From Minisyncoccota bacterium (GTDB lineage Bacteria > Patescibacteriota > Minisyncoccia > Phycocordibacterales > JABAAK01), in the NCBI GenBank assembly GCA_958295675.1, contig OY282360.1, forward strand, positions 52,133 through 116,132: DNA of 64,000 bases, in the 5' to 3' direction. The position numbers and the translations under genes are program-made. A model generated the notes under the pieces. That model had not been told where the DNA came from and made no database searches. It saw only the letters and a program-made list of their open reading frames with translations. Numbering within the stretch: position 1 is the first letter of the stretch; each line of letters begins with the position of its first letter. Below, piece after piece: positions 3,014 to 48,021 of this stretch.

Positions 3014-4126
3014 CTATTTTTCAAGCAGCGGCGAAATAATTGTGGTAAGTGTTGTGTCATCAGCACCGCGAATCATAAGCGGTTTTGTTGCATCATTCAC
3101 CACACTGAAAACAATACGGTCGTCAGATATGACTGACAGCGCATCACTGACAAAGCGATAATTAAAGGACGGTAATGTATCAACCTTGCCTCGCATGGTT
3201 GCCGGGACAATATTTCTGGTTGATCCGACTGTTTCATTATCAAAACCAAGGAGAATTGATGACGCATCCTTAATATCAAACGAAAGTTTATTCAATTTAT
3301 CTGAAAATAGACGGGCCTTTTTCAAAAAATTCAAAAAATCACTCCGTAAAACAGTTATTTCAAGATCAAAATTACCCGGTATTATATTCCTATAATCGGG
3401 GAAACTGCCTTTCACGCTGTTCATCTTTATCAGCACATTTTCAGTAACCACAGTTATGGTGCCATCATAAACATACAAACTGACATCAGGGCTTGCAATA
3501 CCCTCTAAAACACGCAATATTTTAAGCACGCTCTTGATGGGAATGATAACAGATATATCATCACTTTGTGTTTCCTCCAGCAAAAACCTTGCTTCGGCAA
3601 GACGAAATGCATCAGTTGAAACAAAGTAAACTGAATCATTTTTTGTGTGTAAATACACACTTGCTATTTCAGGTTTTATCGCGCTTTCTGATGCGGCATG
3701 CTGCACATTCTTAAATCCTTGTACCAGCACCTCTCGTTTGATAACAAAAGATGGTTTTCCATCGGGCTTATCACCTTCAACAACGACATCGTCACCGCTT
3801 AGGATATATATTTCTGAGGTGCTGGTGTTGGTGCGGACAAGAATCTTCTTTTCCTCAAGTTCAATGGTTGTCATTGTATCTACTAACGATCCGACAACGC
3901 CGTCCAGTGCATGTATAGGAATAAAGGCTGTTCCATCCCGAACCTCGTCAACATCAACGGTGTATATAATATTAAAATCAAACTGCTGAGTTTTGAAAGA
4001 AACTTTTTGTGAAGAAACCTGAACAAGAATACCCCCGGATGATGAGCCCGGCACCTCTTTCGCAACAACTCTTGCGAGGGTGTTTGTGATGTTTTTCAAT
4101 ATATCTGTCTGTAGTGTAAATTTCAT
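3014..4126 (-). CDS. dnaN: DNA polymerase III beta sliding clamp
   Basis: 370 aa, immediately downstream of dnaA on the same strand; three-domain clamp length; ATG verified at 4126. Confidence 0.85.
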   Translation of the reverse strand: MKFTLQTDILKNITNTLARVVAKEVPGSSSGGILVQVSSQKVSFKTQQFDFNIIYTVDVDEVRDGTAFIPIHALDGVVGSLVDTMTTIELEEKKILVRTNTSTSEIYILSGDDVVVEGDKPDGKPSFVIKREVLVQGFKNVQHAASESAIKPEIASVYLHTKNDSVYFVSTDAFRLAEARFLLEETQSDDISVIIPIKSVLKILRVLEGIASPDVSLYVYDGTITVVTENVLIKMNSVKGSFPDYRNIIPGNFDLEITVLRSDFLNFLKKARLFSDKLNKLSFDIKDASSILLGFDNETVGSTRNIVPATMRGKVDTLPSFNYRFVSDALSVISDDRIVFSVVNDATKPLMIRGADDTTLTTIISPLLEK

Positions 4127-4358: not shown

Positions 4359-5720
4359 TTATATGTCAATTGTTTTCATCAAAGAGTCAAAATCTTTCTG
4401 AACAATGGAATTACTTTGCATCTCTTTCTGTATTTTTTCACATGCGTGCATGACTGTTGTGTGATCTCTGTTTCCGAATTGTTTGCCGATAAAGGAATAC
4501 GAAAGCCCTAAGTGCTCTCTGAAGATGTACATTATCACCTGTCTCGCATGCACCACCTCCCTTTTGCGCAACTTTGTTGAAAGAAGACCTGGTTGTATTT
4601 TATAAAATTCACAGACAATTTCAACAACATGTTCGTACGGTACAGAGGTTTTGGGGCGCACATGATTCCGTATATACTTCTTAACAGTAACAAGATCAAC
4701 CTGTTTTTGAGATGATTCCGCGGTGTGAAGGTGGATGCTTTTCAATGCCCCGCTCACCTCCCGTATATTTTTTGATACCTTTTCCACAACATAATCAATC
4801 GCATCGGGTGTCATATTTAAGCCCATCTTTCCTGCTTTTTCGGTGCAAACAATACGCATATCCTCATATTTTGGCTGTTCAATATCAATAACAACACCGG
4901 AGTTCAGGCGCGTTCTGATGCGGTCTTCCATTTTGTCCAGTTCCGCCGGGGGTTTGTCTGATGAAAGAACTATCTGCGCGTTTTTGTTTACCAGTGCATT
5001 GAACAGGTGAAACAATTCCATGAGAGTTGATTCGCTTTTCTGTAAAAAATGCACATCATCTATGACAAACAGCTGATAACTTCGGTACATATTCCTGAAT
5101 TCCTTCATGCGGTCTTTTTTCAGCGCAGAGATATAGTTTTCCACAAATGTTTCACTGGTTGTGTAATGCACATTTATTGAAGGATTTATTTTTTTTATCT
5201 TGTTGCCGATTGCCTGCAGAAGATGTGTTTTACCGACACCGGTCGGTCCGTATACATAAAACGGGTTGTACATTGTTCCGAATTTTTCTATAATTGTCTG
5301 AGCCGCTGTATATGCGAATCTGTTGTAAGGAGCAATAACAAAATCTTCAAAGGTAAGATCAGGATTAAGATTGGTTTCTTTATCAAAAGTATTCAATTCA
5401 AGCGGGAAACTTTTTATTTTACTCTTCGGTTTCACCGCTTTCTTGATTATCCTTCGTGATATGGTTAATTTTACACTGCGGACATTGGGACTTGCTTTCA
5501 TAACCTCAGAAGCAATGATACTCTGATAGTTTTTTTGTATCCACCCGCGGGTTAATTCATTCGGCACACCCAAAACAAGCACTCGCCCCTCTTCTTCAAA
5601 CCTGAGCGGAAATACACCCGAAAGCCATGTGTTAAAACTGTTCGCTGAAATGTACTCTTTAACAATCTCAGATACTTCAATCCATAGTGTTTGTATATCA
5701 AGGATGCGTGCAACATTCAT
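4359..5720 (-). CDS. dnaA: Chromosomal replication initiator DnaA
   Basis: 453 aa; Walker [20 protein letters not shown] box, C-terminal DnaA-box binding domain ([11 protein letters not shown]); ATG verified at 5720. Confidence 0.95.
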
Positions 5721-8932: not shown

Positions 8933-9550
8933 TTAATTACACCACCAGATATGCCAACACCCATCGTCGTCCGGCGGCTCTGCGACATCGTCACCCTTAT
9001 CACCTTTCTGGGTTTGTAAACTGGTTTGTGAGAGTCCAGAAAGGAGTTTTGAATCTAATAGCCTTGGGTTTATAAATTGTAAAATAAGATAGGAAAGCAA
9101 GAGCAAAACAATAGCGATAACAACACCAGTCAGCTTTGTTCGCATATCAAGCACCTTGCCCACATTGCCGCTCAATTTTCCGTAAATCATGCCGGTGCCA
9201 TGTACCGCAAGCATAATAACCGCGATTGTGCCGGCAAATGTGATTAGTATTTTGAGTAGTCCGTTGATTATATCACGCAACGTATCCCCATCCTTCTCAA
9301 CCGCGATTGTCTTCGTTCCGTTTGGTACTAAACCAAAAATATCTGTGACCAGTTTTAATTTTTTAAAACTTTCTTCCCCTCCTGGTAGTGGTATAGCTCT
9401 TATGTTTTCCGTTTCGAGATCTGCTGCTGCTTTTTTAGCATCTATTTCTTCTTCCTCTGCGATAACCGGATGAAACAGAAAGGCGAGAGTAAAAATGCTA
9501 TAAAACAACAGCAAATGTATAGTGTGCTTTTTGATTCTTCCTATTTTCAT
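8933..9550 (-). CDS. Candidate VirB2/TrbC-like pilin (signal peptide + two hydrophobic helices)
   Basis: Signal peptide MKIGRIKKHTIHLLLFYSIFTLAFLFHPVIA, acidic stretch, then two TM helices; placement inside T4SS-like operon; assignment by architecture only. Confidence 0.4.
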   Translation of the reverse strand: MKIGRIKKHTIHLLLFYSIFTLAFLFHPVIAEEEEIDAKKAAADLETENIRAIPLPGGEESFKKLKLVTDIFGLVPNGTKTIAVEKDGDTLRDIINGLLKILITFAGTIAVIMLAVHGTGMIYGKLSGNVGKVLDMRTKLTGVVIAIVLLLLSYLILQFINPRLLDSKLLSGLSQTSLQTQKGDKGDDVAEPPDDDGCWHIWWCN

Positions 9551-10508
9551 TTTCTGCCTGTATTCGCAGGGGTATAGTAACATCCTCCTGCCCATCCGCG
9601 GAAATATCAATTTTTCTACCTTCTTTGAGATGGTTTTGGTTGTTGTTCACAAACCACTTATATTGTATCGCATTTTTTTCAAAATCACCCTTACTGAAAT
9701 AAAACGGGTACACAGAGAAAGTTGCCGGTTTATCGTCGGATAAAGTAACATTTTTTGAGGCAGCGGCATTATCTGAAAGACCATGTAGGAGCGTTGAAGG
9801 ATAAACCAAAACCCTCGGTTCTGTTATAGGGACAAACAACACTCTTTCAAGCAACACATCGTTCCTGTTTATCAGCGTTGCTTCAACTCGCACAAAGACG
9901 GATTCACCAACATGTCGTGCACCCTTCCCGTACACCACACTACTGACCCCCGGTCCGCGGTCTTCAAGAAATTCAGATTTAACTTCCCAGCGAAACGAGA
10001 AATCGTCTTCTGTATATGTTGTGCCGTTTTGATCAATAAAATGTATTTTTGCGGAAATCTTTATCGGGGTTTCCGGGCTGACAAGACGGTGACCCCTATA
10101 CTGCGGTGTGGTCACCGCATCACCCTCCCACAGCAAATCAAAAACAATCGGTCTGACCCATTTTGTAACCTGCAAGGACCGCCTTTGGTCAAATGCGTTA
10201 AAATAAACAATATTCGCGACAATGTGTTTTGGGGAACTGTCAGTCGGCATGTCCAGCTGCAGTTTGTTTGCATATTGTTCCTGCTCATCGCCGTTGATGT
10301 ACCACCGAACCGATCGTATATTTGCCACCGAAGAACCGCCGGATCTGAGAGATGCTGTCACAAAACTGCCGGGAGATGGGTACTCTTCATCCAAAGAAAT
10401 GCTGTATGCGCCATGCTCTCCCTGCTGCGCGAGTGAAACTGTCGCTCCGACAAAAAACAGGAAAAGGAGGGTAATATAGGTAACGCAGGTGATATTTTTT
10501 ACATGCAT
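9498..10508 (-). CDS. Secreted hypothetical protein
   Basis: 336 aa with N-terminal signal peptide (…FFVGATVSLAQQ); part of co-directional operon. Confidence 0.55.
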   Translation of the reverse strand: MHVKNITCVTYITLLFLFFVGATVSLAQQGEHGAYSISLDEEYPSPGSFVTASLRSGGSSVANIRSVRWYINGDEQEQYANKLQLDMPTDSSPKHIVANIVYFNAFDQRRSLQVTKWVRPIVFDLLWEGDAVTTPQYRGHRLVSPETPIKISAKIHFIDQNGTTYTEDDFSFRWEVKSEFLEDRGPGVSSVVYGKGARHVGESVFVRVEATLINRNDVLLERVLFVPITEPRVLVYPSTLLHGLSDNAAASKNVTLSDDKPATFSVYPFYFSKGDFEKNAIQYKWFVNNNQNHLKEGRKIDISADGQEDVTIPLRIQAENENRKNQKAHYTFAVVL

Positions 10509-10573: not shown

Positions 10574-11083
10574 CTAATTTTTCAGCAACATCTTCGATAT
10601 TTCCCGTACCCGCAGAAACCACACAAAAAATGTCCAAAATGTAAAGCCGCCGACGAACGGCAATGATTCCACGAAAAAAACAAGAAGTCCGATAATACAA
10701 TCAAGCAGTGTGTAACTGCCTTTTGGTGTGGCGAGTACAATACTGAGAAATATACACAGCACGATGAGAGAAATGACAAAATGCAAGGTATACACACCAA
10801 GAGATGCACTTATAATAACCTCACCGGCTCGCTCTATATGCTCACCAACTTGCTCTATACTCTCAATCTTAAAATTAAAAAGCCAGTTCAGAGCATTGTT
10901 CACAACCTCGCCAAGCTTGCTCACAAGCTTGCCTACACCCTCAACAATGATACCTCCAGCAGCACCGATTGTTGCAGGCACTGCCGCCACAACCTGAAGA
11001 TTTAAAAAAACAACACCTATTGAATCAGCAATTGCAGCAATGCCGGTAAAAAAGAGCAGCGACATGGAAAGAGGTTTCTTCAT
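10574..11083 (-). CDS. Polytopic small membrane protein, translationally coupled to VirB4
   Basis: 169 aa, ~4 TM segments; start overlaps VirB4 stop by 4 nt (ATGA). Confidence 0.55.
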   Translation of the reverse strand: MKKPLSMSLLFFTGIAAIADSIGVVFLNLQVVAAVPATIGAAGGIIVEGVGKLVSKLGEVVNNALNWLFNFKIESIEQVGEHIERAGEVIISASLGVYTLHFVISLIVLCIFLSIVLATPKGSYTLLDCIIGLLVFFVESLPFVGGFTFWTFFVWFLRVREISKMLLKN

Positions 11084-12948
11084 ACCGTTTCCTGTTCATG
11101 GACAACAGGCGAGTCAGAGGTTTGGCTTTCAGGCGCACCTCCAATTTCTTCTTTCTTTGCCGCGGACTGTTGCGCCAACACCTGTGACGGATCGGAGGTG
11201 ATTATTTTATCTTCCGTCAGCGATGCGATTATTTTTATAGCAACCCTTTTAAGTCCGGCAATAAAAAGACCCTCGCCGAGACCTGCCTCTAAAAGCAGAT
11301 ATTTTTCATTATCAGTCAGGTTAAAAATCTCCTGTATTAAATCTATAGAAGTCGCCGATTGGCGCAGAAGCAGCACAAGTGATGCATTGTTCAATATTGG
11401 TTTCCCATATTTTGACCGAAGAAAGTCACTCACATCCTGTGTAATAGTACCGACACCGAGATAGTACTTTCTGCCCCGCTTCACAAGACCGAACAAAAAT
11501 GCCGCGGTATCATCCGATTGCATCATAATCCACGCTTCATCAACAACAAGCAGTCGTTTCTTCAGATTTTTTCGGACATTATTCCATATAAATCGGGTAA
11601 TAATATACATCGCCGCGGTTTTCAATTCGTCTTCCATATCACGAATTGAGAAGACGACAAACTGCTTGTCCATATCAACATTGGTCGGCTGGTTGATAAA
11701 ACCGGCCCACGAGCCGCTGGTATACCTGTCCAATCGCTCCGCAAGTTCTTCTCCGCCGTCAATGCCGGCAAGCACAAGCGCAAAATCAGACAAGAGAGGC
11801 GGCTCCATATTGCCGAACTCGCCGGACGGAGTGATGTCTTTCAACGCGTATGTTTCTCTGATGGCGCGGTCAACAATTGATTCTTCTTCCTGAGTTAAGC
11901 TGCCGAGCAGAACCCGGAAAAGACCTATAAGATTGATAATCGCACTCCGCAGTACATCGGCGGGGTTCTCATCCTCACCGACAGACGGCAAATCAAACGG
12001 ATTGATATGGTGGTGTGAATTAAGTGAGACATTAAAATACCTGCCTCCGGTTGCCTGCGCAAGCCGTTCAAACTCTTTTTCCGGATCTATAATAATAACA
12101 TTAGTGCCCACCATGAGTGATCGCAGCACTTCAAGTTTCATCGCGTATGATTTTCCCGCTCCAGATGTGGCGAATGTGACGGAGTTGTAGTTCGGCAGTG
12201 AGAAACGGTCAAACAGAATGAGAGATGCATTGTGTTCGTTAATGCCGTACAAGATACCTTTCTCAGACGATAAATCAAACGATACAAACGGGAACAAGCT
12301 CGCTAATGGTTCCGAATTTAATTTTGTGTGTATGGCGAGCAAATCAGTCCCGAAAGGACTGGTACTCCGGAATCCTTGTTCCTGCTGAAAGACGGTCGGC
12401 TTGACGAAAATAAGCCGCCCCTCAAGAATGGAGCGGACATCTTTCTCCACCTCATCAATTTCCTCAAGGTTTTCACCATAAATAGTGATATAAACACCAA
12501 CCTCAAACAGGCGTTCTGTCGCTTGCTGTATATTTGACCGCAAGGTCTCAAGGTCCTGATGAGCGGTATCTAGCTTCGGGTCACGCACCATTCCTTTCCG
12601 TTCCCGCTCAATAATCTGGCTTTCAACCTGCGCAACCTTTCTTCTGAATTTTCTCAGCACATCCTTTGATTCCATAGGGTGTATGTAAATAGCGATATCA
12701 AACTCCTTATTCATATTGATAATCGGAGAAAACCAGCCCTCATTGAGAAAACGCGGGTATGACACGATAGCGAAAGAGCGAACCACCTTATTGCCGAGAG
12801 AGATATTTTTTGGCGTAACCTGTATCGCTGCCGGAGCGATAACATCACGCAATCCGATGCTTGCCTGATCAAAAGATTCATGCGGAATGAAATGATCAAG
12901 GTCATTTTCTTCTTCCCTTCCTTTTTTTAAATTACTCAATAGACCCAT
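11080..12948 (-). CDS. VirB4/TraE/ConE-type type IV secretion ATPase, C-terminal 622 aa segment
   Basis: Walker A TSGAGKSYAMK, Walker B RLLVVDEAW; continuous in frame with upstream ORF across a single TAA. Confidence 0.85.
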   Translation of the reverse strand: MGLLSNLKKGREEENDLDHFIPHESFDQASIGLRDVIAPAAIQVTPKNISLGNKVVRSFAIVSYPRFLNEGWFSPIINMNKEFDIAIYIHPMESKDVLRKFRRKVAQVESQIIERERKGMVRDPKLDTAHQDLETLRSNIQQATERLFEVGVYITIYGENLEEIDEVEKDVRSILEGRLIFVKPTVFQQEQGFRSTSPFGTDLLAIHTKLNSEPLASLFPFVSFDLSSEKGILYGINEHNASLILFDRFSLPNYNSVTFATSGAGKSYAMKLEVLRSLMVGTNVIIIDPEKEFERLAQATGGRYFNVSLNSHHHINPFDLPSVGEDENPADVLRSAIINLIGLFRVLLGSLTQEEESIVDRAIRETYALKDITPSGEFGNMEPPLLSDFALVLAGIDGGEELAERLDRYTSGSWAGFINQPTNVDMDKQFVVFSIRDMEDELKTAAMYIITRFIWNNVRKNLKKRLLVVDEAWIMMQSDDTAAFLFGLVKRGRKYYLGVGTITQDVSDFLRSKYGKPILNNASLVLLLRQSATSIDLIQEIFNLTDNEKYLLLEAGLGEGLFIAGLKRVAIKIIASLTEDKIITSDPSQVLAQQSAAKKEEIGGAPESQTSDSPVVHEQETV

Positions 12949-12954
12949 ACGATG

Positions 12955-13566
12955 TTAGTATACCGCAGGCGGTGCTTGCGTGTCCCCAGGGTTAAATGTT
13001 TGATACAACAATTCGGTCACCTCTTCGGTGCCCAGCTGCACAGCACGCAGACCGAGAGAGCGAATATTGTTCTGTATGAAACCGACCCGCTGCAGCAGTT
13101 GTCCTTGCTGTTCCTCAAACTGCTTCTCTTTTTGTGTTTCAGTTTTTTTGAAGATTTGCAATCCACCTTTCCCTTTTGACTGCACCGGAGAGTAAGTAAC
13201 AATCACAAAGAATTGTTTGGTCATTATTTCATTCTGGTCGGTGAAATCTTTTATAAAATTAATGTATTCCTTTGTTTGCAGGCGAAGCAATTCATTCCCT
13301 TGTTTGTCATGAAGATCCTGCAGAAACTGAAGGTACGGCTTTATATTCAACCGTCTGGACTGTATAAGCACTTGAATACCAACCTCAAGAGAATTAAGCA
13401 GTGACTGAAATTGATACAGAATTGCCTCCCGCTCCGTTTCAGATTTTAAGTTAAAATTAAGAGCGGATACAAGCACAATTGCGCACAATACACCATCCTC
13501 ACGGACAATAATACCATCCTGTATCTCTCTGACAGGTACGAATGATTGTGTGGTGCTGTTTGTCAT
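12955..13566 (-). CDS. VirB4 N-terminal domain segment (203 aa), ends at an in-frame TAA 6 nt before the ATPase segment
   Basis: PVREIQDGIIVREDG…ALNFNLKSE resembles the N-terminus of Gram-positive-type VirB4 (ConE/TcpF/Orf16); same frame as 11080..12948. Confidence 0.7.
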   Translation of the reverse strand: MTNSTTQSFVPVREIQDGIIVREDGVLCAIVLVSALNFNLKSETEREAILYQFQSLLNSLEVGIQVLIQSRRLNIKPYLQFLQDLHDKQGNELLRLQTKEYINFIKDFTDQNEIMTKQFFVIVTYSPVQSKGKGGLQIFKKTETQKEKQFEEQQGQLLQRVGFIQNNIRSLGLRAVQLGTEEVTELLYQTFNPGDTQAPPAVY

Positions 13567-14000
13567 ATAGTTACTTCAATATCATCATCAGGAGCATCGT
13601 CAAACATAAGGTTAGTATTCAGATCATTCACTTTATTTGAATCATGAGTGGCCGCGCTTGACACATCTTCCGAGGTGCTTTGCCGCATTTTCCGTTCCAC
13701 ATATTTTTCATTTCCTTCCTTTTTCCACACATACATTTTTTTGCCGGTAAAAAAACGGATTATTGACTGCAGTACAACTGAGAACGGCTGATTGTTAAAA
13801 TTGAAAAACGCAAGCAATCCCGCGAGGAGCGCGACAGGGGACCCCAAAAACAAGGCGGGCAAGAAACCACCGGCAAAAAAGAAAAGAAATATCATAAAAC
13901 CACCCGCACCGCCGAGATACAACAACTGTTTAAAACTGAGCCCGAAGATGATAGTATCGGAAACATCCAAACTTTGCGGAACTTGAAAGCGCATACGCAC
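13563..14000 (-). CDS. PrgI/VirB3-like small membrane protein
   Basis: 145 aa, two adjacent TM helices, sits immediately upstream of VirB4 with 4-nt overlap, as VirB3/PrgI does in conjugation loci. Confidence 0.55.
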   Translation of the reverse strand: MRMRFQVPQSLDVSDTIIFGLSFKQLLYLGGAGGFMIFLFFFAGGFLPALFLGSPVALLAGLLAFFNFNNQPFSVVLQSIIRFFTGKKMYVWKKEGNEKYVERKMRQSTSEDVSSAATHDSNKVNDLNTNLMFDDAPDDDIEVTI

Positions 14001-14083: not shown

Positions 14084-16549
14084 TCACTCCCTGCCGCCGG
14101 GTCGTGGTGTTCCTTTTCTTGCAGCATTTACTTCCTGCCCAAAGTTGCCGATATCTGTTATTACCGGTTGCCCACCTCCTGGCGGTTGTGCAGGAGATGT
14201 TGGTGTTGTTGTCGGTGGTGGTGTTGTCGGTGGCGGCGTTGTCGGTGGTGGTGTTGGTGACCCACCACCACCTGCTAATATTTTTTCTGCCCTCCTCTTC
14301 ATATTTGGTTTTACATTAGGGTGTTTTTCAATAATTTCTGCTTGATAACGCGGTACTGTCGGACGGTTAAGAACAGTGTTCATAACACCAGTATTATTTG
14401 TATCCCCATCCATTGCACCCTTAATCATTTGTTTAAATTTCTCTTCCCCTTTTTCTCCACCGTCCTTCATCGTCTGACTTTGATTGAGAATATCATTGAT
14501 AACAGCACCACTTGCTTTTTTAACAAGTTTTTCAAACATTTCATCATATTGAGGTGCGGCAATATCACCGGGCACTTTTTTAACAATCTCAGATCGCAAT
14601 TTCATATTTTTATCCCCTGCGTAACTATTCAGAACATCAACATATGACCCTTCGTTATCATTCATATCTTCAATATTTTTCTCAATCTTCGCTTCCTCTG
14701 TTTTCATTCTCCTGATATCTTTTTCAATATTTGCCCTTCTGCTTGCTTTTTCAGGTTCTGTGATGTTTCGCGTGTTAAGATTCCTGATCATTTCCTCCGC
14801 TTGTCTTATATTTTCTTGAACTCCACTGAGTTCCTCATTCTCTTTGTTTCTCTCCTTATCATTTTCTTTAAGGTATGATATGGTCCCGTTAATGGATTTG
14901 ATCTGCTCTTTCTCATCAAGTTTTGCCGGCTCATATACCGATTGTTTTTGAATATTTTCCCTCGCCGCATTTCGGATAGCGATGTCAAGTTTCCCGTCAT
15001 CTGTTATTTTTTTCAAAGTTCTGGTCGAAGTATTTTTATTATTTGCAATCGCCTTCCAAGTCGCCTCATCTTTTTTGGCACCCTTTTCATTACCTTTTTT
15101 GAGACCTTGTTTAAGTATATTTAGTTGAGCCGCACTCAAGGTGTCGTTGGCGGCAAGAGTGGATCCGAAGCCGTTCTCTTTCAGATGTCTTACCTCTCTA
15201 TCCAAAAGTCCCGATGATTTGGCAAGTTTCATCTTCTCATCATATGTGCCGTCAACAACATCAGACCACCTTTCTCTCTGCTCGTTTCGCGTAGCGCGTA
15301 GTTCCTGTATACCTTTTTTCGCCTCTGGAGTGATTTTCTTCCCCCCGAGCACATCCTTGGCGACAGCGGTGTACGCTTTTCCGGTTCTATTGAGGTTTCG
15401 GAATGTTCGCCCCAAAAAAGCTCCCGCTCCAACCCCCACTCCGGTCTTTTGAGCAATCTTACCAAGAGTATTGCTCACGCGACCTGCCGGCAACATTCCC
15501 GCAACATTGCGGGCGATACCGAAGGATGCGCGACCAACAATACCTGCGCCTCGGGGCGAAACAAACTTGCGCAAGTGTTTACCAATCTCAAACTTGCCAA
15601 TCTTTATACTACTGACAATGCGACCCACATAGAAAATGCCGAAGATAAACACAATACTCACAATACACAATTCAACAAGAAATGCTTCAGTATTCGATGC
15701 ATTGTCCTTGAGTATCTTGTTGTTCGCTGTAGCGAATATGTTAAATATAATCAAAAAGCCAAAAATAAGCATGACCGGGGTCAGCAATGCCCTTCTGAAC
15801 ATGTCCTGCCATGTCTCAAAGAACTGCGCGATCATCTTAACACCCGGCGCCTCACGCACCTCTTTGGTAAAAAACCCTAAAAATGCAAGGGGTGATGAGA
15901 TGACCAATAAGATGGCGAGTATAAATCGTTCAATAAGCAGAATGGCAAACCACACAAAACCAAATGAAACAAAAAAGGTTGTAATAGCACCGATTGTTTG
16001 ATAAAGAAATCTCCATAATCCTGACTCAAATACGCCATCCAACCCCTCTTGAGTAGTAAAAAGACCTGTTTGCATAAGATGCTCAATCTCCACCACAGAG
16101 AGAACAGCAATAAACAGAGCGTTTGAAATGTCAAATAACGCTAACACAAAAAAAGCACTGAAGTTTACAAGCAGCGCCACCGCAAGCAGACCAAGTAAAA
16201 TTTTCTTGTTTCTCTCCCAATTTCCGAAAAGCGTGGTTATGGCGGTCAATATAAAGAACACCACAATGAGTAAATTGACGATATCCCGCACCGTCTGCCA
16301 AACGGGCTGCAATCCCAAATCTGTGGTCCAAAAATCGGCAAAATCAAGAATTGTGTACTGAATAACAAACAAAAAAAGTTTTATGCACAAGGCGAAAAAT
16401 CCATTGGCAGCATCCAATAATGCTGAACCCAACATATTACCGATTGCATTAAAAATAGCATATACCTCTATCGGGAATAATATTAACAGCAGCACAAAAA
16501 AGAGAAGCACTCTCAATATTGGTATGTTTTTTTGAAAAGATGTGCGCAT
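14084..16549 (-). CDS. VirB6/TrbL-like polytopic membrane protein with long coiled-coil and Pro/Thr-rich C-terminal tail
   Basis: 821 aa; ~8 TM segments in N-terminal 330 aa; C-terminal ~480 aa hydrophilic, K/E-rich, ending PTPPPTTPPPTTPPPTTTPTSPAQPPGGGQP. Confidence 0.6.
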   Translation of the reverse strand: MRTSFQKNIPILRVLLFFVLLLILFPIEVYAIFNAIGNMLGSALLDAANGFFALCIKLFLFVIQYTILDFADFWTTDLGLQPVWQTVRDIVNLLIVVFFILTAITTLFGNWERNKKILLGLLAVALLVNFSAFFVLALFDISNALFIAVLSVVEIEHLMQTGLFTTQEGLDGVFESGLWRFLYQTIGAITTFFVSFGFVWFAILLIERFILAILLVISSPLAFLGFFTKEVREAPGVKMIAQFFETWQDMFRRALLTPVMLIFGFLIIFNIFATANNKILKDNASNTEAFLVELCIVSIVFIFGIFYVGRIVSSIKIGKFEIGKHLRKFVSPRGAGIVGRASFGIARNVAGMLPAGRVSNTLGKIAQKTGVGVGAGAFLGRTFRNLNRTGKAYTAVAKDVLGGKKITPEAKKGIQELRATRNEQRERWSDVVDGTYDEKMKLAKSSGLLDREVRHLKENGFGSTLAANDTLSAAQLNILKQGLKKGNEKGAKKDEATWKAIANNKNTSTRTLKKITDDGKLDIAIRNAARENIQKQSVYEPAKLDEKEQIKSINGTISYLKENDKERNKENEELSGVQENIRQAEEMIRNLNTRNITEPEKASRRANIEKDIRRMKTEEAKIEKNIEDMNDNEGSYVDVLNSYAGDKNMKLRSEIVKKVPGDIAAPQYDEMFEKLVKKASGAVINDILNQSQTMKDGGEKGEEKFKQMIKGAMDGDTNNTGVMNTVLNRPTVPRYQAEIIEKHPNVKPNMKRRAEKILAGGGGSPTPPPTTPPPTTPPPTTTPTSPAQPPGGGQPVITDIGNFGQEVNAARKGTPRPGGRE
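14196..14280. repeat. Short tandem DNA repeat (GGTGGTGGTGTTGTCGGTGG units) encoding a PPTTPPPTT low-complexity tail
   Basis: Directly visible triplicated ~27-nt unit within the VirB6-like gene. Confidence 0.6.
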
Positions 16550-43894: not shown

Positions 43895-44025
43895 AAAAAG
43901 AAAATAACGGCGGTGATTGGCACGGGAGCGGAGCGAACGGAGGGGTCTTGTCGCAGGCATGTCCCCGCAACGATGCGGAGCGACTAGTTTTCATGTTTAC
44001 TGAGCGCGAATGTGTGTCATCTTGT
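43895..44025. repeat. Right copy of the imperfect inverted repeat (contains a 46-nt insertion relative to the left copy)
   Basis: GAAAAAGAAAATAACGGCGGTGATTGGCACGGGAG…CGGAGCGACTAGTT…TACTGAGCGCG matches the reverse complement of 38600-38700. Confidence 0.6.
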
Positions 44026-44034
44026 ATCCTTGGG

Positions 44035-44105
44035 TGCGGGCGGGGAGAATCGAACTCCCGTTTTCCGCTTGGAAGGCGGATGTTCTACCACTAAACTACG
44101 CCCGC
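44035..44105 (-). tRNA. tRNA-Gly (anticodon TCC)
   Basis: Cloverleaf on minus strand: acceptor GCGGGCG/CGCCCGC, anticodon stem TCCGC/GCGGA, loop CTTCCAA, T arm GGGAG-TTCGATT-CTCCC; 71 nt. Confidence 0.85.
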
Positions 44106-44132
44106 GAGGTCAACGCTTTTACTATACTACAC

Positions 44133-44170
44133 AAAAAGCGAAGACAAGATTTCCTGCCTTCGCTTTTTTG
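44133..44170. terminator. Bidirectional-looking stem-loop (AAAAGCGAAG…CTTCGCTTTT) flanked by A-run and T-run
   Basis: 10-bp stem, 14-nt loop, T6 on plus side and A5 on the other. Confidence 0.45.
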
Positions 44171-44448
44171 TATTGCATAATTTTCAATTACTCACTTCCC
44201 TCTCCTCCAGCTGTTTCTGCACCTGCCTCCTTCCGCTCTTCATCGTTGCCCTCACCAGGAGTATTGTTCTGCATTTCGTCTGTGTTTTCGTTCATCATAT
44301 ATGATTGATTTGATTTTTTGATAATACAGTCCGTATGGACATAACCACATAATACTACATGCCAGCAAGATATCAATAGGAAGCAAAATACAGGAGTATA
44401 AAATACAATACTTGCATATATGTCAAGTTTATGCTAATATAGTACTAT

Positions 44449-44742
44449 ATGATTAATAAAACAGAACAAAAAACCATAAAAATCAAGGTCTTTTTCACCG
44501 TGTTTATCGCAGTTTTGCTGGCATCGTTTATAGCAGTACCTCTGTATACCAATGCGCATACACCCACCAATGATGTCTGTCAGGAAGAGAGAATAGAGGA
44601 AAACCGTCGCTTTCTTGGCATTCTCATCACACTTTTGGGTATGTTAGAGGATGAATCCGTAGGTGGCGAATCTCCTGCAGACGATGGCAGTGATAGGCAG
44701 AGTACAGCAACCACTGGTAAAAATATGCTTGCATCTGTCTAA
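44449..44742 (+). CDS. Small membrane protein, hypothetical
   Basis: 97 aa; TM FFTVFIAVLLASFIAVPLY; acidic C-terminus. Confidence 0.4.
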   Translation: MINKTEQKTIKIKVFFTVFIAVLLASFIAVPLYTNAHTPTNDVCQEERIEENRRFLGILITLLGMLEDESVGGESPADDGSDRQSTATTGKNMLASV

Positions 44743-44792
44743 GAAAGTGTCATAAACATCGTATTATTTCATTATCAATTACATTATTACCC

Positions 44793-44858
44793 CTCACGCC
44801 CCCTGGTGTGTCCGTGCTTTATTACTACCCTCTTCACGGACACACCAGGGGGCGTGAG
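44793..44858. repeat. Perfect 24-bp inverted repeat hairpin (18-nt loop) immediately 3' of tRNA-Pro(CGG)
   Basis: CTCACGCCCCCTGGTGTGTCCGTG …18 nt… CACGGACACACCAGGGGGCGTGAG; no mismatches. Confidence 0.7.
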
Positions 44859-44874
44859 CATTATATATACATTG

Positions 44875-44946
44875 TCGGAGAGCCGGGACTCGAACCCGGA
44901 GTCACACGCACCCGAAGCGTGTATGTTACCCTTACACTACTCTCCG
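44875..44946 (-). tRNA. tRNA-Pro (anticodon CGG)
   Basis: Acceptor CGGAGAG/CTCTCCG, anticodon stem CACGC/GCGTG, loop TTCGGGT, T arm CCGGG-TTCGAGT-CCCGG; 72 nt. Confidence 0.85.
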
Positions 44947-45022
44947 AATACTAATAATATAGTACACAACTTCAATACTATACAGCACCTGTAATCATTT
45001 CATATGATACAGTACCTACATC

Positions 45023-45751
45023 ATGGCGGTAGAAATTGTATCCCTGCTTATTGTTATCGGCATTCTACTATATGTGTTGCCGTCCCTTATTGCGCATTAT
45101 CGTGGACACAAGCACACACTCCAGATTATCCTACTCAACCTTTTCCTTGGTTGGACAATTGTTTGTTGGTTCGGTGCATTCGTTTGGTCTGTTCTGACAG
45201 ACACACCACCAATTGATCTGAAACAGGTACTTAAGAAAATATTGATCACACTTCTTATTGTCACACTGCTTTTCATTGGATTAGTGTTCGGAATAAATCG
45301 GTTTCTGTACACATCTATTACTTCAGAATCGGAAGATATTTCTTGGCAACTCTCCACACAAGTAGGTTATCTCATATCACCATATCCATTCGCACAATTA
45401 CATTCAGACACTGCGCATGGCAGTCAATCATCTCTCTACATACATTGTCGGCATGACTTTCTGCAAGTACATATAGCTACCAACTTGCACGGACAGTTAC
45501 CCGGTGATGAATCAGATAAGCAGGTAAGGGCGCGACATCGAATAGGTCAGGGTGACTGGATAGATTTGGAATGGATTGCAAAACGCGGCGGTGTTACTTA
45601 TCCAGACACTGATTTTGTTCATTTTGTGAATTCACTGGACCAAGAAAAATCTGACCTTGTGATTGAATTTGAAACCGGCACCAAAGTTCAATTCCCTATT
45701 TGGAACGGTTACGACGATATGCGCAATCATATTACTTGTTTGCGGCAATAG
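45023..45751 (+). CDS. Superinfection-immunity-like (Imm/SIP family) membrane protein with C-terminal extension
   Basis: N-terminal …LPSLIAHYRGHKHTLQIILLNLFLGWTIVCWFGAFVWSV matches the two-helix superinfection immunity protein signature; second TM pair follows; 242 aa. Confidence 0.6.
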   Translation: MAVEIVSLLIVIGILLYVLPSLIAHYRGHKHTLQIILLNLFLGWTIVCWFGAFVWSVLTDTPPIDLKQVLKKILITLLIVTLLFIGLVFGINRFLYTSITSESEDISWQLSTQVGYLISPYPFAQLHSDTAHGSQSSLYIHCRHDFLQVHIATNLHGQLPGDESDKQVRARHRIGQGDWIDLEWIAKRGGVTYPDTDFVHFVNSLDQEKSDLVIEFETGTKVQFPIWNGYDDMRNHITCLRQ

Positions 45752-45863
45752 ATGTTTTATCCGGTATTGTATAACGACAACACTTTCCGTGGTTGAACAG
45801 ATAGAGCACTGCATACAATTGAACCCGCATGTCCACAATAACAGATACAAAAATTCCTTTCAG

Positions 45864-45936
45864 TCGGGGAGCCGGGATTCGAACCCGGAGTCACCCGCAC
45901 CCAAAGCGGGCATGTTAGCCGTTACACCACTCCCCG
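45864..45936 (-). tRNA. tRNA-Pro (anticodon TGG)
   Basis: Acceptor CGGGGAG/CTCCCCG, anticodon stem CCCGC/GCGGG, loop TTTGGGT, T arm CCGGG-TTCGAAT-CCCGG; 73 nt. Confidence 0.85.
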
Positions 45937-45985
45937 GATAAGCAGTGGTAATTATACCATATATGCACTGTGCTATACTGTATAC

Positions 45986-46723
45986 ATGAAAGAAAAAAGA
46001 AATTTTTTTCTTGCTATTATAGGGATATTAATTATTCTATTAATTTTCTCTCTTTTTTCAGATTATAAGGAGCATGTATATGAAGAGAGAAAAGTGTTGT
46101 ATGAAGATGAAAGTGTTGAAGTTGCCAATCAGGAAAACCGTCCTAAATCCTGCAACAGTAATATTAAGGAGGTTGTTTCTGAAGAAGGTATGATTGCTGT
46201 TACATATGAAAGACCATCATGGCTGACCGGGCATGTAAAACAATGTGATATTGAACAATATATCTATGCACAGTATGCAGAGATTAAAAAAAGTGCGGAC
46301 GATTTGTTAGCCGAATTTCCGGATAGTGCACTACTTCCCTTTCGGCTGAATATAAAAATAAAACAGTATGTTGTTGATCCATACGAAAGTATTATTATTG
46401 AAAACTGGCATTATACCGGCGGCGCACATGGCAATGTTGCATATAAATATTATAATTTAAAGGAAAAGAGTGACATCTCATTTGAAAAATATCTGAATGA
46501 TATCAGATATGATAAGCAGAATCTATTACAACAAGTGAACAAGCAACTAGAAGAAGATGGAAATGATATGATAGAAAAATTTGAATCGGAATATGAAGAT
46601 CAGGAAGTTTCATTTCCATGGCATATACACCAGCGCGAAGACGAATCCTTGGGCATCACATTCATTTTTCCTCCATATTTTGTCGCATCATATGCGGCTG
46701 GCACGATTGTGTATTCATTTTAA
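45986..46723 (+). CDS. DUF3298/DUF4163-like membrane-anchored protein
   Basis: N-terminal TM FFLAIIGILIILLIFSLF; WHYTGGAHGN motif characteristic of DUF3298 (RsiV/PdaC-type) domains. Confidence 0.6.
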   Translation: MKEKRNFFLAIIGILIILLIFSLFSDYKEHVYEERKVLYEDESVEVANQENRPKSCNSNIKEVVSEEGMIAVTYERPSWLTGHVKQCDIEQYIYAQYAEIKKSADDLLAEFPDSALLPFRLNIKIKQYVVDPYESIIIENWHYTGGAHGNVAYKYYNLKEKSDISFEKYLNDIRYDKQNLLQQVNKQLEEDGNDMIEKFESEYEDQEVSFPWHIHQREDESLGITFIFPPYFVASYAAGTIVYSF

Positions 46724-46764
46724 ACACTTCTTTTCTTTCCTCCCTTTATATTGCTTAAAACAGA

Positions 46765-47172
46765 TTATACCCAGAAAATTTCTATACTCGGATACAAACG
46801 ATCGTGCGGCAAGATAACACCAATAACACCTAATGCAACACCAGTATATTTCGGATGACTATTTAAATAATAGTTGCCAAATTGTGACATTCGTTGTATT
46901 TTCTTTTTTGTAATTCGGTCTGATAGACAAAAATCAAAATCAATTATATTATCAACATTTTGTGTGTTTCTATGTGAAACATTAGAAGATGTTTCACGTG
47001 AAACACTCTTAACTTCAAATATATAAAGCACCTGATTCTTTTTTGCAATAATATCCACTTCTATAAATTTAGCTTTGTATTGCATGGCTATTATTGTATA
47101 TCCACAACTTTTCAAATACTTTTCCGCATATTTTTCCCCAGTATTTCCAATAAATTTCTGAAGTGTAAACAT
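46765..47172 (-). CDS. YraN/UPF0102-family predicted endonuclease (PD-(D/E)xK fold)
   Basis: GEKYAEKYLKSCGYTII…FIEVDIIAKKNQVLYIFEVKS matches the YraN signature; contains a perfect parS 16-mer in its coding sequence (46990-47005). Confidence 0.7.
   Translation of the reverse strand: MFTLQKFIGNTGEKYAEKYLKSCGYTIIAMQYKAKFIEVDIIAKKNQVLYIFEVKSVSRETSSNVSHRNTQNVDNIIDFDFCLSDRITKKKIQRMSQFGNYYLNSHPKYTGVALGVIGVILPHDRLYPSIEIFWV
46990..47005. promoter_or_regulatory. parS consensus site (TGTTTCACGTGAAACA) inside the YraN-like gene
   Basis: Perfect match to the 16-bp palindromic chromosomal ParB/Spo0J binding consensus. Confidence 0.7.
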
Positions 47173-47196
47173 AGTTCTCTACAATTTATATACCAT

Positions 47197-47858
47197 TGTT
47201 TCACGTGAAACATGTACAAATACACATATTTCACACACAAGTGTTTCACGTGAAACAGTTTCCTTGTGAAACGATTTACGTAAAATAAGGATATTTTTGC
47301 ACAAAGATGTTTCACGTGAAACATGCAGAGCCGTTAAACACACACAAGTGTTTCACGTGAAACAGTTTCCTTGTGAAACGATTTACGTAAAATAAGGATA
47401 TTTTTGCACAAAGATGTTTCACGTGAAACATGCAGAGCCGTTAAACACACACAAGTGTTTCACGTGAAACAGTTTCCTTGTGAAACGATTTACGTAAAAT
47501 AAGGATATTTTTGCACAAAGATGTTTCACGTGAAACATGCAGAGCCGTTAAACACACACAAGTGTTTCACGTGAAACAGTTTCCTTGTGAAACGATTTAC
47601 GTAAAATAAGGATATTTTTGCACAAAGATGTTTCACGTGAAACATGCAGAGCCGTTAAACACACACAAGTGTTTCACGTGAAACAGTTTCCTTGTGAAAC
47701 GATTTACGTAAAATAAGGATATTTTTGCACAAAGATGTTTCACGTGAAACATGCAGAGCCGTTAAACACACACAAGTGTTTCACGTGAAACAGTTTCCTT
47801 GTGAAACGATTTACGTAAAATAAGGATATTTTTGCACAAAGATGTTTCACGTGAAACA
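47197..47858. repeat. Tandem array of 13 perfect parS sites: six identical 107-bp direct repeats, two parS each, plus one flanking copy
   Basis: TGTTTCACGTGAAACA found at 47197, 47242, 47308, 47349, 47415, 47456, 47522, 47563, 47629, 47670, 47736, 47777, 47843; 107-bp period verified by coordinates; each unit also carries a GTGAAACG half site. Confidence 0.85.
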
Positions 47859-47961
47859 TGTTTCACAAGGTAACACTTACAAGGTGTTTATAGCATTATA
47901 GTAGATACTTGTATAGAATCCTATTTTATTAATAAAAAGAATGGGACAGATATATTATTTC

Positions 47962-47993
47962 AAAAAAATTCCTCTTTTGTGTAAAAGAGGAAT
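47962..47993 (-). terminator. Rho-independent terminator for the minus-strand small membrane protein gene
   Basis: On minus strand: TTCCTCTTTT-acac-AAAAGAGGAA followed by TTTTTTTG. Confidence 0.5.
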
Positions 47994-48021
47994 AATCAGG
48001 CGATGCCTGATGAGAATGTCG

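Follow-up and report, generated by a model that had tools for sequence, protein, structure and literature searches.

A trsD-like gene and virB4 in a common reading frame: probable two-gene form of the type IV secretion motor in a member of the Patescibacteria

The most abundant component of the type IV secretion systems (T4SS) of Patescibacteria is TrsD, a remote homologue of the N-terminus of VirB4; patescibacterial proteins were assigned to TrsD with a dedicated HMM profile, and 1,664 of the 2,272 homologues counted adjoin virB4 (Quiñonero-Coronel et al. 2025, Microb Genom, PMC12102498). The same study reports that trsD is essential in Ca. Southlakia epibionticum ML1, that the T4SS is essential for epibiotic growth in one system tested (citing Wang et al. 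2023), and that the T4SS locus in these bacteria is often located near the origin. The presence of TrsD beside virB4 in Patescibacteria is already published in that work, and the arrangement is not new. It is also our only source for the homology between TrsD and the VirB4 N-terminus; Guglielmini et al. 2014 (PMC4027160), who mention VirB3-VirB4 fusions in some MPF_T systems, do not use the name TrsD in their main text. A comparable pair, TrsD-TrsE of pGO1 and TraD-TraE of pSK41 and the pIP501 group, is found on staphylococcal and enterococcal conjugative plasmids and belongs to the pGO1 subclass of MPF_FATA. In the single-chain VirB4 proteins, such as TrwK of R388, the CD1110 family and the VirB4/CagE family (TIGR00929), the entire protein is one polypeptide of ~750-830 aa.

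Here we analyze a gene pair from a 64,000-nucleotide stretch of DNA (the window) of a Minisyncoccota bacterium. An earlier note had described this pair as a VirB4 ATPase interrupted by a single in-frame TAA and had offered four explanations, namely a recent nonsense mutation, a sequencing error, a naturally split two-subunit VirB4, and stop-codon readthrough. Re-translation of the minus strand reproduced its coordinates, ORF lengths, 6-nt gap and common frame exactly: the 203-aa product ends in ...PPAVY followed by TAA, the 622-aa ORF begins 6 nt downstream in the same frame, and straight translation across both ORFs yields 829 codons, of which one is an internal stop (Table 1). The ATG of the trsD-like gene overlaps the stop codon of the upstream prgI-like gene, and the stop codon of virB4 overlaps the ATG of the next gene, in both cases as ATGA. 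The product of the prgI-like gene, a PrgI family member, has hydrophobic segments at residues 25-68. The pilin-like gene of the locus matches PF18895 (2.8e-4), PF04956 (1.2e-3) and the pilin-like model NF045849 (2.2e-4), all below the cut-off. Family profile searches returned no match for the 169-aa protein or for the 821-aa protein; the latter contains many TM-like segments within residues 1-320 and, judging from topology and position only, is probably a VirB6-like channel component. The locus is chromosomal and lies near dnaA/dnaN. Scans of the window for Rfam families and tRNAs detected five tRNAs and nothing else.

Table 1. Features of the T4SS locus, in positions of the window
Feature	Coordinates	Strand	Basis
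VirB2/T4SS pilin-like gene, weak match	8933..9610	-	sub-cut-off profile matches
Gene for a small membrane protein of 169 aa, coupled to the virB4 end	10574..11083	-	ORF, membrane segments
virB4, 622 aa: remainder of the N-terminal half and RecA-like ATPase domain with Walker A/B	11080..12948	-	profile and structure matches
Intergenic spacer CATCGT, 6 nt	12949..12954	-	sequence
TAA, read as the ordinary trsD stop codon and no interruption	12955..12957	-	sequence and related loci
TATACT, -10-like box from the last trsD codons and the stop, with its end 8 nt upstream of the virB4 ATG	12957..12962	-	promoter-like match at 12986..12957
trsD-like gene, 203 aa, standalone VirB4 N-terminal domain homologue	12955..13566	-	ORF, profile and fold matches
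prgI/VirB3-like small membrane protein gene, directly upstream of trsD	13563..14000	-	PF12666 PrgI 3.7e-11
821-aa polytopic membrane protein, candidate VirB6-like channel component	14084..16549	-	topology and position

The domain assignments of the earlier note, with a VirB4 N-terminal domain in the first ORF and the ATPase body in the second, were borne out by profile matches. The 203-aa protein matches only N-terminal positions of four VirB4 models in the profile search, with alignments to positions 100-239 of 894 in NF045975 (E 4.6e-12), 7-180 of 792 in TIGR00929 and 2-146 of 752 in the CD1110 model. It also aligns with positions 20-200 of 201 in the TrsD/TraD model NF041427 (E 7.6e-7), at 29.2 bits and far below the cut-off of 200; by this profile evidence, the protein is a remote relative of the narrowly defined staphylococcal NF041427 family and falls outside it. 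The top 14 PDB fold matches of its AF2 model (pLDDT 73.6) are TrwK/VirB4 chains, at moderate similarity (E about 2e-3, TM about 0.5); a PDB sequence search with the N-domain profile gave nothing meaningful. A Pfam search up to E 10, with a copy of the database without PF26593, produced no match, and PF26593 is a precomputed annotation among the homologues of this protein. With its VirB4 N-terminal homology, a length within the ~200-230 aa of the TrsD/TraD type and a position between a VirB3-like gene and virB4/trsE, the 203-aa protein is a TrsD-type homologue of the VirB4 N-terminal domain.

The 622-aa protein contains the Walker A (SGAGKS) and Walker B (LLVVDEAW) motifs and matches AAA_10 as well as PF19044 (8.6e-24, 84 bits against a cut-off of 25.8). 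It exceeds the cut-off of the CD1110-family VirB4 model NF045971 (369.5 bits against 325) over positions 180-733 of 752, and together with the N part it tiles the VirB4 profiles end to end. It further matches the VirB4 C-terminal domain 4ag5 (E 9e-43) and the ATPase domain of 7o41. The N-terminal and ATPase domains are not on one polypeptide: a stop codon and a new start codon intervene, as in all relatives examined.

This two-gene arrangement is conserved far beyond the present genome. The 203-aa protein has 420 homologues, and the best 120 of these (45-100% identity) are all standalone proteins of 129-225 aa. The 39 longer N-domain homologues sampled (261-450 aa) have disordered tails and lack the ATPase. 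Of the top 150 representatives of clusters formed at 50% identity, only one is fused (P0222, 797 aa), its N part aligning to residues 6-210 and its C part to residues 230-790. All 80 related species-level genomes of Patescibacteria that were fetched (Paceibacterota, Kaiserbacteria, Zambryskibacteria and similar) carry an N-domain gene and, after it, virB4 as a gene of its own. In 79 of the 80, the virB4 start could be located, and the counts of starts, frames, gaps and stop codons refer to these; the encoded N-terminus is conserved (M-G/S-I/L-F-D-F…), with ATG in 78 loci and GTG, likely a script artefact, in one.

These data bear directly on two of the explanations in the earlier note. The layout of two ORFs in one frame with one stop between them, together with the existence of a fused relative, is what would be expected if an intact virB4 of ~830 aa had recently become a pseudogene by nonsense mutation; but the stop is at the same place in 80 of 80 related genomes, the standalone form is universal among the 120 homologues listed, 49 columns are invariant in an alignment of 16 diverse N-domain proteins, and the downstream gene has its own conserved N-terminus. 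With two separate genes in every relative between 81% and 45% identity, and with a downstream start that is conserved among them, a nonsense-interrupted pseudogene is practically out of the question. A false stop created by a sequencing or assembly error is just as improbable, given that the same structure recurs in assemblies that many projects obtained independently and on many sequencing platforms, and that both NCBI and ENA contain an exact match (P0001) to the 203-aa protein. The comparison of orthologous loci proposed in the earlier note thus yielded consistently two genes and a conserved start of the second part, whereas the Shine-Dalgarno (SD) motif expected in front of that part is generally scarce here (2 of 46 window genes).

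The common frame of the two genes follows from the spacer length, a multiple of three, and is not a conserved feature. The virB4 gene is in the frame of the N-domain gene in 14 of the 79 loci, in the +1 frame in 38 and in the +2 frame in 27 (gap modulo 3 of 0, 1 and 2, respectively); by chance, the same frame would arise about once in three cases. The gaps are mostly 1, 4 or 5 nt, with a range from -44 to 943 nt, and the equivalent stop codon is TAA in 57 loci, TAG in 17 and TGA in 5. This variation in frames, gaps and stop codons indicates that there is no selection for an in-frame arrangement or for readthrough. Programmed readthrough or recoding of the TAA would add a fused 828-aa VirB4 to the two separate proteins, and the in-frame layout with only two codons from the stop to the ATG would permit such a fusion. 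Against this, a frameshift would be required in the 65 related loci that are out of frame, several loci carry inserts of 400-900 nt between the two genes, and no conserved structure or sequence context was seen around the stop, the identity of which varies. Moreover, bacterial translation generally terminates most efficiently at TAA. With neither the frame nor the stop context conserved, we consider readthrough very improbable. Taken together, the gene pair is almost certainly the normal two-gene form of the patescibacterial T4SS VirB4 motor, with the same frame and the TAA being coincidental. This reading is based on the conserved two-gene organization, on the homology found for both halves and on the unconserved frame. 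Accordingly, of the four options in the earlier note, the natural split is the one that agrees with the comparative data; the description as an interrupted VirB4 and the other three options found no support there.

Compared with the TrsD and VirB4 of the described Patescibacteria T4SS, the present locus belongs to the same phylum-level clade, encodes the same components (PrgI/VirB3, TrsD, VirB4, VirB6-like and VirB2-like pilins), has TrsD adjoining virB4, and, in its vicinity to dnaA/dnaN, agrees with the near-origin location noted previously (PMC12102498). The only peculiarity is the 6-nt spacer that gives the common frame. The pGO1-type systems show the same order of a VirB3-like gene, a ~200-230-aa TrsD and a ~620-670-aa ATPase with a short gap; in pGO1 itself (NC_012547), the order is trsC-like, trsD, trsE, and trsD and trsE are separated by 14 nt. 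In the alignment with pGO1 TrsE (E 1e-39), residue 3 of the window ATPase is paired with residue 2 of TrsE, that is, the two proteins align from their first residues, and the break is accordingly at a homologous position. For the N part, BLASTP against pGO1 TrsD was not significant and hhalign gave a weak match (probability 19%), hence the relationship to pGO1 TrsD is deduced from the NCBIfam profile match, synteny and the ATPase alignment. The pGO1-type apparatus is a plasmid-borne conjugation system of Bacillota, whereas the system described here is chromosomal, patescibacterial and probably involved in host interaction.

The single-chain VirB4 proteins have the same domain content and order as the pair analyzed here, with the predicted model of the N part sharing the TrwK N-terminal fold and the C part matching the 4ag5 and 7o41 ATPase domains. 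The difference is that in the present locus there are two polypeptides, cut at about residue 200 in a linker, and the break coincides with a poorly conserved stretch after the NPGD motif. The VirB3-VirB4 fusions of MPF_T systems similarly indicate that the module of VirB3, the VirB4 N-terminal domain and the ATPase tolerates re-partitioning, although in the opposite direction, fusion as against fission. The splits in Patescibacteria and in the pGO1 type may stem, as far as sequence comparison goes, from one shared ancestral event or from several events in the same linker.

The expression of virB4 is less clear-cut. Motifs of the form TATA[AC]T that end 3-14 nt before the start codon (observed, 5-14 nt) precede 11 of the 46 window genes, virB4 among them, compared to 0.9% of random positions. 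The TATACT ahead of virB4 may act as an internal promoter from which a leaderless virB4 mRNA starts. One alternative, which concerns expression only, is that virB4 is translated from its own leaderless transcript via TATACT, uncoupled from trsD, such that the two halves would be made in different amounts. The enrichment of the box and the near absence of SD motifs are compatible with this, as are similar boxes located 8-11 nt before the virB4 ATG in three relatives (L001, L002 and L004); but in most relatives the two genes are 1-5 nt apart, a spacing characteristic of translational coupling, and no obvious box is seen, one of the three (L002) has a clear GGAGG, and the promoter scan around the junction was overall at chance level. 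We therefore regard a purely leaderless virB4 as possible but rather unlikely. Somewhat more doubtful still is the idea that the last trsD codons and the TAA double as a -10 box, GTATACT, launching a leaderless virB4 mRNA, with the ATPase body and the N-domain subunit at different, separately regulated levels; if true, such regulation would be one functional reason for keeping the split. A terminator scan detected none between trsD and virB4, and a literature search on leaderless or SD usage in Patescibacteria found nothing.

Under the two-gene reading, the trsD-like gene encodes the first ~200 residues of VirB4, a single chain in most other systems, and the 622-aa gene encodes the rest, including the ATPase. 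Both proteins would be produced from a tightly packed prgI(VirB3)-trsD-virB4 operon with ATGA overlaps on the flanks and the 6-nt gap between the halves, with virB4 expressed through termination-reinitiation coupling, the internal leaderless promoter, or both. The two halves are predicted to reassemble non-covalently, with TrsD acting as the VirB4 N-terminal domain that attaches the hexameric ATPase to VirB3/PrgI and to the membrane channel. The split itself appears to be ancient and to be maintained by selection throughout the phylum.

Why a separate VirB4 N-domain subunit exists in Patescibacteria and in pGO1-type plasmids is a question already recognised. For annotation, the gene pair should be designated as trsD-like and virB4 rather than as a VirB4 pseudogene, and this genome should be counted as having an intact T4SS. 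A false pseudogene call for the VirB4 motor would distort inferences on the lifestyle of the organism because the T4SS is essential for epibiotic growth in one system tested.

Judging from sequence comparison, the products of two adjacent genes of the window, a 203-aa TrsD-like protein and a 622-aa ATPase, jointly tile a complete VirB4. The ATPase contains the Walker A (SGAGKS) and Walker B (VVDEAW) motifs, matches PF19044 and AAA_10, scores above the curated cut-off of the CD1110-family VirB4 model, of which it spans positions 180-733 of 752, and is matched by the crystal structure of a VirB4 C-terminal domain (4ag5; E = 9e-43). A search of the local Pfam copy with the 203-aa protein yielded no match; the four VirB4 models that this protein matches are aligned exclusively at N-terminal positions (NF045975, 100-239 of 894; TIGR00929, 7-180 of 792; CD1110, 2-146 of 752; PRK13853, 19-181 of 789), and the TrsD/TraD model NF041427 is covered nearly fully (20-200 of 201; E = 7.6e-7), with a score far under the model cut-off. 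The best 14 PDB fold matches of its AlphaFold2 model (mean pLDDT 73.6) are TrwK/VirB4 chains of the R388 system (probability 0.97-1.0, TM about 0.5, about 210 aligned columns). In P0222, a rare fused relative of 797 aa, the N-terminal part aligns with residues 6-210 and the C-terminal part with residues 230-790, so that the break falls in an unconserved linker of about 20 residues.

The minus strand at the junction reads ...CCG CCT GCG GTA TAC TAA CAT CGT ATG GGT.... The earlier note, whose coordinates, lengths and frame statement for both reading frames proved correct when compared with the sequence and the ORFs, took this for a VirB4 gene interrupted by a single in-frame TAA. This reading is rejected given the distribution of the two genes among relatives. 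Among the homologues listed (120 of the 420 found with the 203-aa protein, from 100% down to 45% identity), every one is a standalone protein of 129-225 aa, 117 of them within 190-225 aa. When cluster representatives at the 50% identity level were searched exhaustively, 2,074 hits were obtained, and just one of the best 150 is a full-length fusion. About a quarter of the representatives sampled (39 of 148; for example, P0154, P0172, P0196, P0211 and P0229) are longer, at 261-450 aa, and are not fused to the ATPase either; their extra length is a long P/T/Q/N/A-rich, apparently disordered C-terminal tail that follows an NP(G/E)(D/E) motif. The aligned N-domain proteins share a conserved F-N-P-G-D motif close to the C-terminus and all stop a few residues beyond it.

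Analysis of the junction in 80 species-level loci from Paceibacterota, Kaiserbacteria, Zambryskibacteria, Taylorbacteria and other Patescibacteria (denoted L001-L080) showed that in all 80 VirB4 is encoded by a gene of its own, downstream of the small gene. The VirB4 start could be placed in 79 of these, the script having found none in L035. The start is conserved, with the protein beginning M-(G/S/A)-(I/L/F)-(F/L)-D-F-L-K, and the codon is ATG in 78 loci; the single GTG call (L003) is probably a script artefact because, a short way upstream of it, there is an ATG that opens the conserved N-terminus. The gaps between the genes range from overlap to 943 nt, most commonly 1 nt (14 loci), 5 nt (12) and 4 nt (10), and relative to the first gene, the frame of the second is the same in 14 loci, +1 in 38 and +2 in 27. 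That the two genes of the window share a frame is thus accidental, a result of the 6-nt spacer, and the conserved split excludes both a recent nonsense mutation and a sequencing error. Readthrough of the stop, also considered in the earlier note, shows no sign of selection: the same-frame loci are the minority, and the first gene ends with TAA (57 loci), TAG (17) or TGA (5). Of the explanations put forward, the naturally split, two-subunit VirB4 is the one supported: these are two genes, each conserved and with its own start and stop, that are jointly equivalent to one VirB4.

Coordinates of the features discussed (window, or related locus L)
Feature	Sequence	Position	Strand	Remarks
N-part ORF (trsD)	window	13566..12955	-	203 aa; ends PPAVY-TAA
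C-part ORF (virB4)	window	12948..11080	-	622 aa; ATG at 12948, 6 nt past TAA, same frame as N part
PrgI/VirB3-like gene	window	13563-14000	-	TGA stop overlaps trsD ATG
169-aa membrane protein gene	window		-	ATG overlaps virB4 stop
821-aa polytopic membrane protein	window	upstream of pair		probably VirB6-like
Pilin-like gene	window	downstream of pair		weak match
dnaA	window	4359-5720	-	about 2 kb from T4SS cluster
dnaN	window	3014-4126	-	about 2 kb from T4SS cluster
TATACT box	window	12962-12957		overlaps last trsD codons and stop
Long-ORF start regions (examples)	window	10508, 12948, 24693, 32571, 35620, 45986, 50474, 54209
PF14373 protein gene	window	45023-45751	+	242 aa; E = 3.9e-17
Long spacers	L010; L021; L022; L034	4628-5091; 4634-5080; 4634-5054; 4315-4756
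Long spacers	L053; L077; L080; L042	4634-5084; 3281-3740; 4616-5111; 4182-4650
Hairpin spacers	L050; L051; L068; L008	4631-4702; 4598-4716; 4634-4755; 3662-3774		z = -5.9; -9.7; -6.8; -2.6
Palindromes	L080; L053; L010	4597-4638; 4613-4646; 4608-4647
PrgI/VirB3-like gene	L042	4673-5101		PF12666, E = 2.4e-10

The natural split of VirB4 in Patescibacteria is already published and is not new. Quiñonero-Coronel et al. (PMC12102498) describe TrsD as a distant homologue of the N-terminal part of VirB4 that occurs in the pGO1 subclass of MPF_FATA; of the T4SS components detected in Patescibacteria it is the most abundant, with 2,272 homologues counted, of which 1,664 are found together with virB4. The Staphylococcus aureus plasmid pGO1 has the same order as the window, namely, a VirB3-like gene, trsD (227 aa, annotated "TrsD/TraD family conjugative transfer protein") and trsE (672 aa), the latter two separated by 14 nt. 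The likeness of the N-terminal part to pGO1 TrsD is only remote; the alignment of the ATPase with TrsE starts by pairing its residue 3 with residue 2 of TrsE (628 columns, 25% identity, E = 1e-39), and thus VirB4 is cut at a homologous place in both.

The operon to which the trsD-virB4 pair belongs is packed tightly on the minus strand. Three features lie about 40 kb from dnaA and dnaN, around 44000-48000: the minimum of the cumulative GC skew, a change of gene orientation from minus (up to about 44 kb) to plus (from about 45 kb on) and a stretch of low GC content (33-36% at 38-48 kb) that contains four tRNA genes. The replication origin may therefore not be adjacent to dnaA. Between tRNA-Pro genes of this low-GC region is a gene for a protein with an N-terminal superinfection-immunity domain, possibly left over from a mobile element.

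Eight of the 80 related genomes have a trsD-virB4 spacer of about 420-500 nt (943 nt in L042) in place of the usual 1-15 nt. In six of these, the spacer contains an ORF of 114-134 aa, and all four ORFs scanned match the "23S rRNA-intervening sequence protein" family (PF05635, E = 2e-18 to 7e-40), a bAvd-like four-helix bundle; the L053 and L080 spacers hold only related reading frames without a clean ATG-started ORF. Imperfect inverted repeats of 19-34 nt, with sequences that vary by locus, flank the insert in the seven loci tested (all but L042). The insert has the architecture of an rRNA intervening sequence, placed here between two protein-coding genes of one operon, and insertions seem to have struck this junction repeatedly. 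At the same junction, in four other loci, ORF-less spacers of 72-122 nt fold into long hairpins; these spacers may be what is left of this inverted-repeat element, or empty forms of it. No significant hairpin was found in the spacers of L078 and L028. Perfect or near-perfect palindromes of 17-21 nt are centred just past the trsD stop in three loci, and the trsD 3' end therefore recurs inverted at the start of the insert, a feature that could reflect how the insertion took place or could act as a hairpin signal. In L042, a PrgI/VirB3-like gene follows the PF05635 gene between trsD and virB4, unlike in the window, where it lies upstream of trsD, so these three genes do not keep a constant order.

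In most relatives the gap is short, which suggests that translation of the second cistron is coupled to the first by termination-reinitiation. Among the 46 long ORFs of the window, SD-like motifs precede just two, and a TATA[AC]T or (G)TATACT box ends 5-14 nt (mostly 5-10) ahead of the start in 11, versus 0.9% of random positions. In place of SD sites, this genome thus seems to rely on promoter boxes abutting start codons, which suggests that leaderless or near-leaderless mRNAs are widespread in it; a literature search on leaderless mRNAs and SD usage in Patescibacteria found nothing. Given the scarcity of SD motifs, the frequent boxes near starts and the box that ends 8 nt before the virB4 ATG, an internal promoter producing a leaderless virB4 mRNA is conceivable, if rather unlikely. 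A scan around the junction found no terminator between trsD and virB4.

In the R388 structures (PMC9259494 and the PDB entry descriptions), the VirB4 N-terminal domain touches VirB3 and the membrane complex. By extension from these structures, TrsD would bind the ATPase protein non-covalently and would thereby join it to PrgI/VirB3 and the channel. In Ca. Southlakia epibionticum ML1, the TrsD homologue adjoining VirB4 is essential (PMC12102498).
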